From an uncultured archaeon (GTDB lineage: Archaea > Asgardarchaeota > Lokiarchaeia > Sigyniarchaeales > SOKP01): DNA of 64,000 bases. Below, piece by piece: positions 1,001 to 53,036 of this stretch. The notes under the pieces were generated by a model. That model was not told the DNA's origin and ran no database searches. It saw nothing but the letters and a program-made list of their open reading frames with translations. The stretch is taken from positions 32,001 to 96,000 of the forward strand of contig CAYUTF010000002.1 in the NCBI GenBank assembly GCA_964447495.1. The letters run 5' to 3'. A program made the position numbers and the translations under genes. The number at the start of each line of letters is the position of its first letter. The first letter of the stretch is position 1.

Positions 1001-1837
1001 ATGCTGCATGTGTTATGGCAAGGTTTTAACGAAGCGTGGAGACGTTTCGAGTATGATTACATCTTTATTGATGGAGTTTTCTTTTTAGTGTGGCTAACCA
1101 TACTAATTAAAAAAAAGAAATGGAACCCTATCAAATTTGGCGCCATAACAGGTATTATCGTATATTTTATAGATGCAATATTTTGGTGGAATCTGCCCGC
1201 AGGTATTAATTATCCCAATGGGACAACAATTAGAGAATATTGGATCGGGGGAGTTAAGGTGCCCACATCATACGGTCAGTATTTCTGGGTAAAGTTTGGT
1301 GCGGATTTTATGATGTGTTTTTCTTATTCTATGTTTATTTTTGCATGGTTATGGATAATGCTTGAAAATTATATAAAGAAGAATGTAAAAGAAATTGTCC
1401 TTTTTACGGGAATCTTTTTTAGCGCGTGGTTATTAACTCCTTTTCTCTCAATTTGGCTCCCAATTAATAATACCTTAGTTGAAACCGTTAGGCATATGGA
1501 TACTCAGATGATAGTATGGTTTATCAATGCAACCTTAGGATATATTATCCTTTGCATTATTTACGGAACGAATAAATTTGGGAAAAAAAATCTAAAATAT
1601 ATTGGGTATACCTTTATTATTGGGTGTTTAGGTTCCTTCTTCATGGAATTTCCATTATTTATTACGGGTATTCGTCCCACAGGCATTGATTTTTTAATAT
1701 TTGAAATTTTTATCCTGTTTAATCAAGGGGCGCCTTATTTATTTATCGCCTACGATATTGTCCTTCCTAAAGTGACAAAATTCATAAAAACAAAATCAAG
1801 GAAAGGGCACAGAACAAGAAATTGTATTATTAAATAA
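1001..1837 (+). CDS. Multi-pass membrane protein, function unknown
   Basis: 278 aa ORF with several hydrophobic segments. Confidence 0.7.
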   Translation: MLHVLWQGFNEAWRRFEYDYIFIDGVFFLVWLTILIKKKKWNPIKFGAITGIIVYFIDAIFWWNLPAGINYPNGTTIREYWIGGVKVPTSYGQYFWVKFGADFMMCFSYSMFIFAWLWIMLENYIKKNVKEIVLFTGIFFSAWLLTPFLSIWLPINNTLVETVRHMDTQMIVWFINATLGYIILCIIYGTNKFGKKNLKYIGYTFIIGCLGSFFMEFPLFITGIRPTGIDFLIFEIFILFNQGAPYLFIAYDIVLPKVTKFIKTKSRKGHRTRNCIIK

Positions 1838-1855: not shown

Positions 1856-4800
1856 TTATTTCAAATTACTTTTTATCACTTTGATATTGCTCTTCAAGAT
1901 TTTAATGAGAGGATGTTTATTGAATCCGCTCGAAACCAGAATTTTAAGAGCTTCTTCATGTCGGGTCATCGCTTCAGCATAACTTTTCTGATCTAAATAT
2001 ATCAAACCCATCTTATAATTAGTATCCGCTAATCCTCTTTTGTCATCTAATTTCTTAAATAAAGAAAGGGCCTCATTACACGTTTTCCATGCTTTTGTAT
2101 AATCTTTTTGATTGAGTTGGACTAAAGTTAAGTTATTTAAATATTCTGCCCTCTTGACTTCATCTTTTATTTTCCCTGCAATTTTTGCTGCTTCTTCAAA
2201 TCTTTTTGATGCAATATCATACTTCGCGTCATCTAAATAGATTAATCCGATGTTATTTAGACTTTCAGCTTTTCTTGATAAATTATTTAATTCTTCATCT
2301 ACTTTTAATGCTTCTTCAAAAGTCTTTAAAGCTTGAAGGTAATCTCCTTTATCTCGATATATTAGTGCAGTATTAAAGTAATTTACTGCTTTCTCTTCAG
2401 ATGATCCTAAGACTTTGAAGATTTTCACCGCTTTATCGTACCATTTTAGTGATTGTTCATAATTACCTTGATCTTGGTACACTAAGGCAATATTGTTCAA
2501 GCTCTCTGTTTTTCCAATTAGATCGCCCCTTTTTTCGAATAATTCTAAAGCTAAATTGTATCGTTTTAATGCATCCTTATAAATTCCAAGTTTGTAATAA
2601 CCCCATCCAATTTTATTAAATATTGATGCTTTCTTGTCTAAATCATCTAATTGTTTCGCTATTTTTAGTGCTTCATTATACCACTTTAAGGCTTCAGTAA
2701 AATCTCGTGAATTTTCATAAATGGACCCAATATTATCAAAACATTCGTAAATTCCTTCGAAGTTTTCAATTTCAACAAAGATTTTATAGGCTTGCTCATA
2801 CCATCCTAAAGCTTCCGTAAAAAGATTTTGTTCTTGATATAATTTACCGATTTTTCTTATAATTGTAGCTTGATTCGTTAAATTCCCTAATTGCTCCTCG
2901 ATATCTAATGCTTCTCGATAACTTTTTAGGACATCATCATACTTTTTATGTATAAGAAATATCGCTGCGATACTTGTAAGCCGTAACGCTTTTCCTTTCA
3001 AGTTAGCTAATTGTTCATCAATTTTCAATGCCTCTTCATACCATTTTAGGGCTTCAGGATAAGTTTCTTCATCATAATAAATATCTCCGATGCTATAATA
3101 GATATCTGCTTTCTTTTCAAGATTACCTAATTTCTCAGCAATATAAATCGCCTCATTGAACCGTCTTATTGCTTCGGGATAATGTTTTTGCGATTGATAA
3201 ATCTTTCCAATAATGGTTAATATTTCAACTTGATCTTCATAATTTCCCAGTTGATCAGCGATTATAAGCGATTCTTCATAATGCTTTAATGCTTCCAGAA
3301 AATCCCATTGATCTTTATATATGCTACCTATGATGTTTAAACAATGAGATTTTTTAGTTAAATTTCCAATTTGTTCTGCAATTTCAACAGCTTCTTCAAA
3401 TTTTTTTAAAGCTTCATCTAAATCGCCTAAATAATTATAATTCAAACCAATATAGTGTAGACTATCGATTTTTCCTTCCATATTTCCTTCAGCAGTAAAT
3501 ATTTCTAGAGCTTCTTCAAACTTTTTCAAAGCTTCATTATATTCTCCTTGATCTTGATAAATAGAACCAATTTTATTAAGTAAATCGGCTTGGTTTTCTA
3601 TTAAGTTTAAATTTGTGAATATATTTAAAGCATCTTTATATCTATTTAAAGCCTCTGTGAAATTCGCTTGTTCTTGATAATAAAATCCAATATTTTTTAG
3701 ACTTTCAGCACTTCCTTCAAGATTTTCTAAATCTTCATATACTTCAAGAGCCTCTTGGTAACTATTTAAAGCTTCACCGAATTTACGTTGTTCTAAATAA
3801 ATTTCTCCAATAATATTAAGAACTTCAGCTTTCCCTTTCATGTCCTCAAGAGCCTCATACATTTTTAAAGAATTGCCAAACTTTACTAATGATTTTTCAT
3901 AGTTCTTCTGTTTCTTATAAATTAGACCAATATTTACCTGTACATCTACTTTTCCTTTAAGTTTTCCAAGTTCCTCATATAATTGAAAAGATTCTTCAAA
4001 CCACCGTAGGGCTTCGTTGTACTTATCTTGTATATAATATATATTTCCAATCTGAAGAGAATAATCTGCTATTTGTTCTTTATTACCTTCTTCTTCAGCG
4101 ATAGAATATCCATCTTCAAATAATTCTAGCGCTTTTGGATAATTCCACTGATCGAGATAAATTAAACCCATATTTTTGATGGTTTTAAGTTTTCCGATAA
4201 CATTCTGATATCGCTCATATATCTCGAAAGCTTTATTGCATAATTCAATTCCTTTAATTGAATCACCATCTAGATGATAAACCATTCCTAATAGATTATA
4301 TATGTCTGCTTTCTCTTCAACATTTTCTAATTGTTCATTAATTTCTAATGAATCTTCAAGATATTGTATCGCTTTTTGATAATTTTTCTTAAAGTAATAT
4401 ATTTTTCCAATTTCTTTAAGATTTTTAGCTTTTTCCCGATTATTGTCGACCTTTTCGTTTATTTTAATTGCTATTTCATAGTTTTTTAGCGCGTCATCAT
4501 ATTTTTCTTGTTTACGATAAATACTGGCATAATGTTTCATAATCTTAGATTTTTCAGTTAAATCTTTAGACTTTTCATTTTCTTTAGATGCCAAATCAAA
4601 GTATTTTATCGCTTCGGAAAATTCATTTTGTTTTTGATTAATTAAAGCTATGTATTTAAAAATAGTACTTCTTTGAGCATAATTTTTTATTTTAATTTGA
4701 GCTTGTATTGCTTTTTGGAACCATTCTAATGATTTTTCATAATCCCCTTTATCAAAATTAATTTTACCCATTTCTACTAATGCTAATGATTTCCACACTT

Positions 4801-49542: not shown

Positions 49543-51330
49543 TTATCCTTCTTTTTCAATATATTCTAAATTTTCTAAAAGAGATCTTAACTTTAAGGCA
49601 TTTGCACCTCCAGATACCTGTATATTAACTATTGAATCCTCATCCGTACCAGTAACATTGGTTTCGATTAATACCTTTTCTGCTCGTATCTGTTTTGTTT
49701 GCCGTTTACTTAATGCTTCTTTTAAGGGTTGATCCAAATTTGGAAATTCAGCAGCAATTTCTACCCAGACTTCTTTTTGATGAGAATATTTAAACGTAAA
49801 ATCTGAGACTGTTTGTTTATAAAGTTCTTGATCGCACCAATTAATTAGATAGGCTCTATTAGGAAATTCAAGATCATCAATTAAATTATTCCTAATTTCA
49901 GATAAACTTTTAATATCTCCATTCTTCACAGCGATATCTATTTTTCTAGCTAATTTTGAATACTTTTTTGCTTTTACTGATTTTATAAAAGAGATCAGAT
50001 CAAATTTAACTATTAAATCGTTCATTGCATAATTATCGAGCATTTTTAAATCATTTACTTCTGGAGTTCCATCACGAAAACGAGTAGCTATTTCATAACA
50101 GGGCTTTCGATTAATATATCGTTTCTTAATTTCTTCTAAAACATGTTTAGTAAACTCATATTTATTACCCCAGAATGGTGCTTTCTCCAATTCTCGTGAT
50201 GTATATTTCACGCGATGGGATATTATGTAAGGTGCAATTGTATTTACAATATTAATATCAACTATATTCAAGTTTAATAACCATGCTAAAGCTTTAGAAT
50301 ATCTAAGAAGATCTTTTGCTACTCTTACACTTAGAATGGAATCAATTTTATTGCAAACGCTTTGTTCGGTGTTGAAATGACATCCAGAACACAATCCAGA
50401 ACTGGGTTTGATATTTTCAGAATTCCCCTTATCTACGCGAGCACATAAAGTATATTCTCTTATTATTGCATGAATATAATTATTCACTTCTGTTTCGAAT
50501 TTCATCTTGTTTACATGGTACCAAATTTCCATGAGACCATCAATATGTAAGATTTTAGGTACTTCAATCAATTCATCATATCCAGAATATTTTTCGTCCT
50601 TTCCTGTAAGTATTAATGATAAATCATTACTTGTTGGCATTGAGATAGGAACTGATATTCCAAAACGATCTAGAAACGGTTGAGACAGTTTTCGAATAAT
50701 TTGGAAATCAAATTAAATTTCGAATGTCCCAACATCTTGTGGATTTATAGTAGCATAAAGCGTGTATTTTTCTATAGTATTAATGGCATCGTAATATTTT
50801 ACTTTTCCTTCAGCTAATAAGGATAAAAGAATATCTTGGGCATATGGTGTCAATCTGTTGACCTCATCGATAATTTTCCAAAATCCAGTTACAAATTGCC
50901 TCCAAACGACTACTTCTTCCCCGTCTTTCATTAACTTTCCTAATTTTAAAGTCCCTGTAAGTTTTTCTTCTGTGAGTTGCGGTTAGCCGTTAAACGCTGA
51001 GAGCGATTAACTATGACCCCTTACAATGGAACTTTCAATTTGATCCAATGTCATACCAGTGAACATCCTACCTAATAGTTTAACTAAAGTAGTTTTACCC
51101 CCACCATGTCCTCCAACTAATAACATAGCAGAGTTTGGTACTAGCGCATTTAAAACACACATAGATAAAATTTCAGGCAATGTATTTGTTATAAGCTTCT
51201 TCTTATCCTCATTAAAATATTTAACTTCCAAATTTTTAGAATGAACAAATAATTGATTTGCTTGGATGAGGTTAATAGTGTTCCATACTTTTTTTCTTAA
51301 TGATTCTTCTTCTCCTAATATATTTGACAT
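49543..51330 (-). CDS. MoxR-like AAA+ ATPase; three exons (51330-51013, 50982-50719, 50688-49543), 575 aa after removing two 30-nt introns
   Basis: Walker A GGHGGGKT, spliced RGHPQLTEEKL, Walker B IIDEVNR, spliced NPQDVGTFELSQPFLDRF; all exons in one frame and the only internal stops lie inside the two inserts. Confidence 0.88.
50689..50718 (-). other. Putative 30-nt BHB-type mRNA intron (intron 2 of the MoxR-like gene)
   Basis: AUUUAAUUUGAUUUCCAAAUUAUUCGAAAA; outer helix GUUGGGACA/UGUCUCAAC, central UUCG/CGAA, bulges AA^A and AA^C. Confidence 0.85.
50983..51012 (-). other. Putative 30-nt BHB-type mRNA intron (intron 1 of the MoxR-like gene)
   Basis: AGUUAAUCGCUCUCAGCGUUUAACGGCUAA; central GGUC/GGCU, bulges AU^A and AA^C, inner GUUAA/UUAAC plus CGCU/AGCG. 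Confidence 0.85.
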
Positions 51331-51443
51331 AAAGATTATCTTTCAAAGATTTTTATTATTATTTTAATTATGGTTCTATAGTATTTATAAAATAGTATTA
51401 CAAAATTAATAGAGAAGGGAGAATCAATTTAGTTATAAAACAA

Positions 51444-53036
51444 TTAAAACGTGTATTTTTTCCGTTTCTCGGGTAAAATAATGTTCCCTGAAAGTCCAAA
51501 TTCAGTAAAGGTTTCTGCATGCTCAGTATGCACTGGAATGATATTATCGGCTTGAATTGTGGATAACGTAGAAATCAAGTCCTCTACATTAACATGTCCC
51601 GAGGAATGGATGGTTTCAGTCTTGATAACACCAAATTTATTCAACCATGCATTTAATTTTTTATCTTGAATAACCATTTCTTCATTAAATGGATCTGTTG
51701 TAGAATTTATGAATAATATAGAATCTTGTTTCTGATCTAAATCAATTAATTCGTTCATCATAAAATAATCAAGATACATTAGGTACTTATCCGGCTCAGC
51801 TTTAACATCTTTATAATTGATATAATTTTCTTCTTTTAAAATGATTCGTTCAAATTTTTTATAATCTTCTGATTCGAATTTACCCCATCCTTTCCGTGGT
51901 AAATAAATCGATAAAAAGTCATCATTAAATTCAGGTAAATTGTAATCTCTATAAAATTCTTTAATATTTTCCTCCTCCATCTCATCAAGTTTTTTCTTTA
52001 ATGATTCAATATACATATGAATTTTTGGAGTTATAGCAATAATACGGTTATTTTTCTTAGCCAAATTATAATATAGTAAGAGTCTATCAAGATTTCTGGA
52101 TGGATAATTGAATAAAATTAAACCATGATAGTTATTAATTAATTCTCCAGAAATCTCTTGGACATCTTTCTCCGATTGAGTATCATCTTTAAATTTTTCA
52201 TTCTTAAAATCCTCAACAGAAGGCACACGTGTTCCTTCTGTGATTATTGTTATAGGATTAGACTTTTTAGCATTATTAATAAAAGTTCTTACCCAATCAC
52301 TATGTAATCCATGTGTTCTAAAATCTCCGGTATAAATGATACTTCTTCCGTCGTGTTCTATAATATAGGAACATGCTCCTGGAATGGAATGGTCTACAGG
52401 ATACTGCGTAATTTTAATCTCTCCATTAGATGTATTAAAGAAATAAGGCTTACTAGAATCCATCAGTTTAATTTTCCTTAAACAATCGTGTTTCTTATAA
52501 TCAGTTCTCTTTGCTCTTTTATATTGAATTTCATCATTAGTTTTTTGCTTCTTTTTTGGAACTTGCTTGAATGCCTCATAAAAATGCAAAATCTCAGGAA
52601 CTAATGGATCAGAAGAAATTTCATCTAAATAATTAGCAATTGCTTCTGTTATCCAATTCATATATATTGGGGTACTTTTCTTAAGGAAGCCTAAGAACTT
52701 ACAATGATCTAAATGTGCGTGAGTTAGAAAACAAGCATCGATTAGATTATCATCAGAGGGCGTTATATTGTATCTTCCTGAACGTAATTTTTCTTTAAAT
52801 GGTAGAATAAAATCATTTCTGTATATTTTATTGATTGGAGGGATAAGTCCTAAATATAAATAGTCAATAACACCATTAAATTTTCGAGGATTGAGGAAAT
52901 TTGAAAAATATTGATTCATATCTTTAAAGGATAATCCAAAATCAAAACAGAAGGTTTTATCTCCATTCTTTATAAAGATTTTATTTCCTCCAATCTCGTT
53001 TATACCACCATATATAGAAACTTGCATGAAAAACAA
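51444..53036 (-). CDS. RNase J-like MBL-fold hydrolase
   Basis: GGINEIGGNKI, THAHLDH, VDHSIPGA, YTGDFR, HSSGH, PVHTEH. Confidence 0.85.
   Translation of the reverse strand: MFFMQVSIYGGINEIGGNKIFIKNGDKTFCFDFGLSFKDMNQYFSNFLNPRKFNGVIDYLYLGLIPPINKIYRNDFILPFKEKLRSGRYNITPSDDNLIDACFLTHAHLDHCKFLGFLKKSTPIYMNWITEAIANYLDEISSDPLVPEILHFYEAFKQVPKKKQKTNDEIQYKRAKRTDYKKHDCLRKIKLMDSSKPYFFNTSNGEIKITQYPVDHSIPGACSYIIEHDGRSIIYTGDFRTHGLHSDWVRTFINNAKKSNPITIITEGTRVPSVEDFKNEKFKDDTQSEKDVQEISGELINNYHGLILFNYPSRNLDRLLLYYNLAKKNNRIIAITPKIHMYIESLKKKLDEMEEENIKEFYRDYNLPEFNDDFLSIYLPRKGWGKFESEDYKKFERIILKEENYINYKDVKAEPDKYLMYLDYFMMNELIDLDQKQDSILFINSTTDPFNEEMVIQDKKLNAWLNKFGVIKTETIHSSGHVNVEDLISTLSTIQADNIIPVHTEHAETFTEFGLSGNIILPEKRKKYTF

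Follow-up and report, generated by a model that had tools for sequence, protein, structure and literature searches.

A conserved AAA+ ATPase gene from a Promethearchaeota archaeon with a probable 30-nucleotide bulge-helix-bulge intron in its pre-mRNA

The window analyzed here is a stretch of 64,000 nucleotides (nt; G000:C2:32001-96000) from the 3.81-Mb genome assembly of a Promethearchaeota (Asgard) archaeon (G000; 223 contigs, 98.4% complete, 27-33% G+C). Its minus strand encodes an AAA+ ATPase whose gene contains a 30-nt insert at 51012..50983 (intron 1), which we consider to be probably a bulge-helix-bulge (BHB) intron of the pre-mRNA. One frame spans 51330..49543 and translates to 595 positions with three internal TAA codons in addition to the terminal TAA, and the listing of open reading frames (ORFs) breaks the gene into three ORFs of the same frame, 51330..51007 (107 amino acids, aa), 50931..50713 (72 aa) and 50640..49543 (365 aa). 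With X entered at the stops, the product matched the Pfam family AAA_5 (E 1.4e-7; 32 bits vs. a cut-off of 22), while its score against AAA_3 (the MoxR family) was 18.2 bits and lay under the gathering score of 27. Relatives without inserts have precomputed matches to both PF07726 and PF07728, and their sources name them MoxR-like or MoxR family. The label MoxR-like given to the gene in the original prediction is a loose one: it agrees with the public names of close relatives, but not with the AAA_3 score of the gene itself. Searches of NCBIfam, of the PDB by sequence and of PADLOC gave no match for the product, nor did a search of Rfam over 50500-51400.

Intron 1 opens one codon before the first TAA of the frame and closes with the second, and the frame across it reads RGH, S, stop, SLSAFNG, stop, PQLTEEKL. 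The Walker A motif GGHGGGKT lies upstream of the insert and the Walker B motif WKIIDE downstream. On the transcript, a central helix (H) of 4 base pairs (bp), GGUC with GGCU and including two G-U pairs, stands between two 3-nt bulges; the inner helix (h') comes from the intron and stacks directly on H, and the outer helix (h) is formed by the two exons, which is the arrangement of a BHB (hBHBh') motif. The coordinates and strand of the insert, every letter of the motif as drawn, its helices and bulges, both in-frame UAA codons (51009-51007 and 50985-50983) and its location between Walker A and Walker B had all been given in the original prediction and were found in the sequence as claimed. The term near-canonical, by contrast, needs to be corrected: the motif is present and conserved, but its outer helix is irregular, with 1 bp (G51019-C50981) followed by a 4-nt bulge and then 7 bp. 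Likewise, the outer helix had been called short, which is true of the single pair next to the 3' bulge but not of the seven pairs beyond the 4-nt bulge, one of which covaries. The motif of intron 1 is a relaxed BHB and not the strict or canonical form.

The ATPase gene was found in 26 of the 42 genomes of the genus, G000 included, and was aligned with its 25 relatives. In 24 of them a gap of exactly ten codons stands at the site of intron 1 and the sequence reads RGH-PQLTEEK, which matches the product expected from removal of the insert (IVRGH-PQLTEEKL); sense codons retained by orthologues across this site had been named as evidence against an intron, and these 24 orthologues lack exactly these ten codons. 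Another member of the genus (G017) carries a 30-nt insert at the same site, with one TAA and with letters different from those of G000 at 5 of 30 positions. Scanning with the 3' end of the insert and the following exon further identified six metagenome contigs with a 30-nt insert and in-frame stops at this site, and each of the eight intron-1-bearing sequences (six of them distinct) has at least one in-frame stop in the insert. These intron-bearing sequences are scattered on the gene tree. The likeness between the inserts of G000 and G017 (25 of 30 positions) is far above that of neutral sites, and it points to a constraint on the fold, transfer between lineages, or both.

Across the order, the gene is present in 120 of 154 genomes, with in-frame stops only in G000, G017, G041, G042 and G078 and, in G131, in a second copy that is degenerate; at the level of the phylum, 204 of 400 drawn genomes matched the gene, with no further interrupted case among the matches listed. 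By contrast, public protein sequences suggest that the gene is interrupted in many uncultured lineages. Of 88 public proteins resembling exon 1 (58-186 aa), 44, which include the product from the window itself, terminate in RGH and a single further S, N or C; in three more, the sequence either continues into an insert at this position or has a variant motif. Similarly, among the exon 2 relatives that are 192-197 aa long, 12 of 13 terminate with GTFE and no more than one additional residue, i.e., at the site of a second insert described below. The public gene calls list the exons as separate proteins of 105-107 aa (ending in RGHS or RGHN) and 195 aa (GTFE plus one residue). Several of these split products are named hypothetical protein, and some bear unrelated names (ABC-transporter, DnaC). 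No intron-less or spliced form identical to the exons of G000 was found among public proteins, in which the best relative of exon 2 was 94% identical. Other truncated relatives (P0134, P0160, P0139, P0141, P0194, P0206, and P0208) end just after FWKII (at Walker B), LLSLLA or CVLNA, and such ends could point to additional sites of introns elsewhere among the lineages. In other genera of the order, N-terminal matches that were split (L018 and L019; G032 and G028) were rejected as candidates: they reflect a variable in-frame lysine-rich linker of ~20-50 residues and no intron. The degenerate copy (L100; G131:C132:23000-26200, minus strand) carries a nonsense substitution and is no longer similar beyond LDRF. 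As the fragment of a true pseudogene, it contrasts with the intron-bearing genes.

Comparison of the eight intron-1-bearing sequences (G000, G017, and the six metagenome contigs), which are related to one another, supports the fold. Among them 91.3% of the BHB cells are paired vs. 13.5-44.4% after the 3' partners are slid. H is paired in 100% of cells in the six distinct sequences, h' (nine pairs) in 88.9% and h in 90.5%. Four pairs are altered on both sides in a compensatory manner, three in h' and one, between the exons, in h. This exon-exon pair lies in the 7-bp part of the outer helix (column pair 6-60) and is U-A in two sequences and C-G in three, through synonymous changes at third codon positions. 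In H, a U-to-C change in two sequences converts U.G to C-G; the same change disrupts the alternative pair 15-48 that is preferred by RNAalifold, leaving C.A in two of the eight rows. All four pairs of H together with the first five inner pairs, in the fixed 30-nt register, occur at 2007 of 7,595,790 genome positions (2.6e-4).

The gene around the inserts is alive and under purifying selection. Compared with five relatives, the ratio of nonsynonymous to synonymous substitution rates (dN/dS) is 0.045-0.09, at a proportion of synonymous differences (pS) of 0.67-0.75, where synonymous sites are saturated; the pair G041 and G046, given as uninterrupted, has a dN/dS of 0.044, which matches that of the interrupted gene. 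Besides the inserts, its 574 codons show no frameshift and no other defect. TAA is not a sense codon in G000: it terminates this gene and 1582 of the 2272 ORFs of the genome that are at least 200 aa long and whose end codon was read whole. Inserts at the second site elsewhere carry TGA.

The same rule of cleavage accounts for the limits of the inserts at more than one site. If the cut in either bulge falls behind its second base (AU^A and AA^C), exactly 51012..50983 is excised and CAT-CCG (His-Pro) is left. A shift by one base either way ruins the His or the Pro codon, both of which are kept in all intron-less orthologues, and no cuts other than the bulge-defined ones restore His-Pro. The second insert (intron 2) folds much more strongly than intron 1 (z = -4.53; 0 of 200 shuffles as good). 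It is missing from 22 of the 25 relatives in the genus and present in G041 and G042, where compensatory changes from C-G to U-A in H and from A-U to G-C in h' are found; the second-site inserts that carry TGA are those of G042 and L094. At intron 2, the rule restores GTFE-LSQ, and the same residues are restored in G041 and G042 with different letters. In L094, the BHB is shifted one base onward and a Leu codon is rebuilt across the joint (parsed by hand and by the fold). Two other pairings were rejected. The 6-bp central helix given by the minimum free energy (MFE) fold of intron 2 would excise 28 nt and is disrupted by A.C in G041, and it is the 4-bp register that fits the RNA joint described below; a long-range BHB between both 5' sites fails as GGUC cannot pair with UUCG. 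A third 30-nt BHB intron splits the P-loop (GGGK-TTL) in G078, which belongs to another genus (L099; G078:C72, locus 1427-1474, minus strand), and its MFE fold is itself a BHB with H of GGAA and UUCC and bulges AAA and AAA. The rule thus restores conserved residues in four separate contexts, i.e., intron 1, intron 2, the shifted form of L094 and the P-loop of G078. All four are exactly 30 nt long, although other lengths would have been detected, and their sequences are unrelated.

The genome encodes the enzymes that such splicing would need. Two ORFs, on contigs C196 and C3, match EndA (PF01974; 208 and 206 aa, 104.2 and 68.6 bits, over the cut-off) and one matches RtcB (PF01139; 561.2 bits). 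In their accessible text, two sources describe a broad-specificity (alpha-beta)2 EndA with two paralogues for Asgard archaea (PMC5829648; bioRxiv 10.64898/2026.10.13.758758). Of the 24 sequencing runs listed, three RNA libraries (X17, X18, and X21) hold a small share of the window, and four RNA contigs lie on the gene. One contig from X17 (224 nt, 0 mismatches, depth 2.5) maps with its first 112 letters to 50900-51011 and with the remaining 112 to 50718-50829. In the sense of the mRNA, this joint links 50719, where the 5' cut of intron 2 is predicted, to 51012, where that of intron 1 is predicted (or 50718 to 51011), and the DNA run X3 is colinear across the region. Such a joint is what would result from endonuclease cleavage in both 5' bulges, followed by ligation of intron 1 together with exon 2 into a circle.

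We consider it probable, at about 85%, that 51012..50983 is a BHB intron in the pre-mRNA of the conserved AAA+ ATPase gene of this Promethearchaeota archaeon. This interpretation builds on the observed limits of the insert, conservation and covariation of the fold, purifying selection, the enzyme genes and one RNA joint at the 5' sites, and from these we infer cleavage at the 3' bulge, ligation of the exons and the identity of the acting enzymes. In the proposed mechanism, GGUC of exon 1 would pair with GGCU at the intron end as the transcript folds, giving a 4-bp helix flanked by the 3-nt bulges, the intron hairpin and an interrupted exon-exon helix. A heteromeric (alpha-beta)2-type EndA would cut after the second base of each bulge, and RtcB would join the exons to give Arg-Gly-His-Pro-Gln-Leu, by which the open frame through the nucleotide-binding core would be restored. 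Without splicing, translation would end after 107 residues; intron 2 (50718..50689) would need to be removed too.

Several observations weigh against this interpretation. The thermodynamic signal for intron 1 is weak: the z-score of its 66-nt fold is -1.04, an equally good fold is reached by 28 of 200 shuffles, and the MFE of this fold pairs GGU with ACC in place of H. Within a 100-nt context, the BHB lies only 0.9 kcal/mol above the MFE, and the probability that H pairs is 0.07-0.09 in G000 vs. 0.23-0.58 in G017. The comparative evidence for the fold is much stronger than that from energy. It has limits of its own, as the search pattern by which the six metagenome rows were found prescribes columns 41-50, at the 3' end of the intron, which makes the invariance there one of construction, and as the covariation measures were reached by 17-21 of 500 column shuffles and the percentage of paired cells by 70 of 500. 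The 3' bulge adjoins a single outer base pair and a 4-nt bulge, which makes the motif relaxed. In the RNA, the X17 contig runs through 50983, so that the 3' site of intron 1 was uncut in that molecule, which would fit the irregular helix next to the 3' bulge. Neither an exon 1-exon 2 nor an exon 2-exon 3 joint was found among the four RNA contigs, whose cover is tiny. The back-splice itself comes from one contig of a single run at depth 2.5, and RNA libraries can contain DNA.

Table 1. Observed and predicted features of the ATPase gene and its inserts (positions in the window)
Feature	Position	Strand	Remarks
Exon 1 of AAA+ (AAA_5) ATPase gene	51013..51330	minus	Met1 to His106, Walker A GGHGGGKT; from alignment with 25 genus orthologues
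Outer helix h of intron 1, 5' strand (exon 1)	51019..51026	minus	G51019 pairs with C50981; 51026-51020 with 50976-50970
Central helix H of intron 1, 5' strand GGUC (exon 1)	51015..51018	minus	pairs with 50988-50985; two G.U pairs
5' bulge AUA of intron 1	51012..51014	minus	predicted cut between 51013 and 51012; invariant in 8 sequences
Intron 1 (probable)	50983..51012	minus	30 nt; in-frame TAA at 51009-51007 and 50985-50983
Inner helix h' and loop (23-nt intron hairpin)	50989..51011	minus	stem GUUAA/UUAAC stacks on H; in MFE
Central helix H of intron 1, 3' strand GGCU (intron)	50985..50988	minus	fixed by search pattern in 6 metagenome rows
3' bulge AAC of intron 1	50982..50984	minus	predicted cut between 50983 and 50982; invariant in 8 sequences
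Outer helix h of intron 1, 3' strand (exon 2)	50970..50981	minus	includes 4-nt bulge 50980-50977
Exon 2	50719..50982	minus	88 codons from Pro to Glu, with Walker B and sensor 1
Intron 1 and exon 2 joined head to tail	50719..51012	minus	294-nt back-splice in X17 contig; joint 51011>50718, 1 ambiguous letter
Helix H of intron 2, UUCG/CGAA	50724-50721 with 50694-50691	minus	bulges AAA (50720-50718) and AAC (50690-50688); outer helix 9 bp
Intron 2 (predicted)	50689..50718	minus	30 nt, one in-frame TAA, just before LDRF arginine-finger motif
Exon 3	49543..50688	minus	arginine-finger motif LDRF, C-terminal part, terminal TAA

Among the other explanations, the one that survives best is that of a pseudogene, in which the 30-nt insertions would be inert and never removed and no full-length ATPase would be made. 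Three in-frame stops in the gene, the lack of a spliced joint in the RNA and the weak fold energy of intron 1 are what it would lead one to expect, and broken genes do occur in G000, such as a conserved transporter gene with a lone nonsense codon. Nevertheless, we regard it as very unlikely, given that dN/dS is like that of the uninterrupted pair, that 574 codons have remained without frameshift or other defect, that an insert of 30 nt occupies the same site in eight sequences of several lineages, that half of the 88 short public proteins terminate at this site, that the changes in the helices are compensatory and that the RNA joint falls exactly at the predicted cuts.

Slightly less probable still is a tiny mobile DNA element or a recombination scar, in which case the BHB-like fold would be incidental and the RNA joint an artefact of the library. 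The patchy distribution on the gene tree and the conservation of the intron beyond that of synonymous sites, which would fit a recent transfer, speak for such an origin, yet the 3.8-Mb genome holds no second copy, no target duplication and no terminal repeats besides the hairpin are present, and bases of the intron covary with bases of the exon. As to an artefact, a joint assembled from words of k=31 needs reads that truly span it, and with one shared letter, switching driven by microhomology is unlikely. Patchiness is equally expected of BHB introns, as in the lineage-specific loss of the cbf5 intron described in the accessible text of Yokobori (2009; PMC2738675).

The explanation to which we give the least weight keeps the insert in the mRNA and leaves its handling to the ribosome, by read-through of the stops, recoding of TAA or translational bypassing. 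Bypassing is known from phage T4 gene 60, and known bypass elements are a multiple of three in length, start just before a stop and contain a hairpin, all of which is also true of the insert. Nevertheless, we regard it as highly improbable since TAA ends the ATPase gene and most others, since the TGA in the second-site inserts of G042 and L094 makes a single reassignment insufficient, since the insert would place ten extra residues in a conserved core that lacks them in 24 of 25 orthologues, and since bypassing would lack a matched pair of take-off and landing codons (the sole pair, GGU and GGC, lands directly before TAA) and would leave the covarying exon-exon helix and the RNA joint unexplained.

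We also searched for further interrupted genes in the genome. No other copies of intron 1 or 2 were found in it, the best other match being 13 nt. A comparison free of any motif was made in both directions between 663,994 bases of the relative G046 and G000, and as a positive control it recovered both introns. Among 382 ORFs of G046 (matches of at least 60% identity), 29 insertions of at least 3 aa were found in G000, none with a stop; in the reverse direction, 397 ORFs of G000 gave 19 insertions, four of them with stops, all four upstream of start codons. No other interrupted protein gene was found in these orthologue-like pairs, 382 in one direction and 397 in the other. A scan of ORF breaks for the BHB motif does not discriminate, because 566 of 2494 in-frame breaks pass the relaxed BHB rule vs. 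493 with a nonsense rule of parallel pairing, and the lone 30-nt candidate that it gave (C11 56030-56059) was rejected as two adjacent genes. ARAGORN with intron search made 15 intron calls among 56 tRNAs, several of them implausibly long, and these calls were not used. On contig C132 of G000, outside the window, a conserved membrane-protein gene of 445 codons has an in-frame TAA at position 3445 where G046 has Asn; this gene is 80% identical to its G046 orthologue and has no insertion, and its TAA reflects a point nonsense mutation or else an error of the assembly. Within the window, the gene directly upstream of the ATPase gene (51444-53036, minus strand) encodes a protein of the metallo-beta-lactamase fold with the RNA-specificity domain RMMBL, and it precedes the ATPase gene in G046 too.

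A broader proposal, which we put forward only tentatively and hold to be rather unlikely, is that uniform 30-nt BHB mini-introns form a class that has, on repeated occasions, gained entry to the catalytic core of a single conserved AAA+ gene in Promethearchaeota, or has been retained there by selection, at no fewer than three sites (in the P-loop, between Walker A and Walker B, and just before the arginine finger). ATPase output would in that case hinge on the machinery of tRNA splicing, as if through a splicing gate, and incomplete cutting would yield a circular RNA of 294 nt that contains an exon (intron 1 plus exon 2). Were this to hold, protein genes in the archaea most closely related to eukaryotes would provide an ongoing example of introns being gained and lost, and possibly of regulation that depends on them. 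For intron 1 itself, the significance is that introns in archaeal coding sequences are nearly unknown and that the same mechanism would here operate in Asgard archaea and at several sites of one gene, with presence and absence of the intron differing between species. The ATPase gene could thus offer a tractable system for studying the gain and loss of BHB introns in mRNAs, the constraints of coding vs. those of RNA structure and a possible splicing gate on expression. Genes with such introns are systematically mis-called as split or broken.

The closest known case is the BHB intron of the crenarchaeal cbf5 (pseudouridine synthase) pre-mRNA, reportedly found by Watanabe in 2002. As of 2020, the accessible text of one source gives cbf5 as the only coding-region mRNA intron known in archaea and adds a case in a 5' untranslated region (UTR) of Haloferax volcanii (PMC7714728), and reference lists to 2025, as far as they are available, cite only cbf5 papers for such introns (PMC12397907). 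Gain and lineage-specific loss of the cbf5 intron in Crenarchaeota have been described (Yokobori, 2009; PMC2738675, in the text available). Within the accessible full text of the literature retrieved, no description of BHB introns in Asgard protein-coding genes was found, and the Asgard papers retrieved treat tRNA introns. Like the putative introns of the ATPase gene, the cbf5 intron is short, lies inside an archaeal coding sequence, is recognized by its BHB, is found in lineages whose splicing endonuclease is hetero-oligomeric, shows both retention and loss among lineages, and leads to errors in gene prediction. The host here is, however, an AAA_5 ATPase in the Asgard phylum, which makes it the same kind of intron but another intron; two introns reside in one gene and a third site is found in another genus, all of exactly 30 nt and in frame; and splicing of cbf5 was shown by reverse transcription PCR, whereas that of the ATPase introns is predicted.

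The non-canonical BHB introns of Asgard tRNAs, as far as the accessible texts describe them (PMC11291895; bioRxiv 10.64898/2026.10.13.758758), have the same two 3-nt bulges across a 4-bp helix, half of which is exon, and the same presumed enzymes, and repeated gains have been inferred for them within Asgard lineages. In contrast to these tRNA introns, the host RNA here is an mRNA, the exon half of the motif also codes, and covariation is found at synonymous positions. The BHB intron in the 5' UTR of HVO_1309 of Haloferax volcanii (PMC7714728, in the text available) is similar in that EndA acts on an mRNA, beyond tRNA and rRNA. It differs in lying in an untranslated leader, whereas intron 1 of the ATPase gene interrupts the frame inside the catalytic core. 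In eukaryotes, IRE1/RtcB splicing of HAC1/XBP1 mRNA is a regulated stress switch, in which IRE1 acts on paired stem-loops. This system, also named in the accessible text of PMC13149111, shares with the mechanism proposed for the ATPase gene a protein-only excision of a short mRNA segment that is independent of the spliceosome, by a structure-reading endonuclease followed by an RNA ligase, and in both splicing would decide whether a functional protein is made. The two differ in that a putative EndA would act here on a BHB, in contrast to IRE1 on stem-loops, and in that regulation by stress is a feature of the HAC1/XBP1 system.

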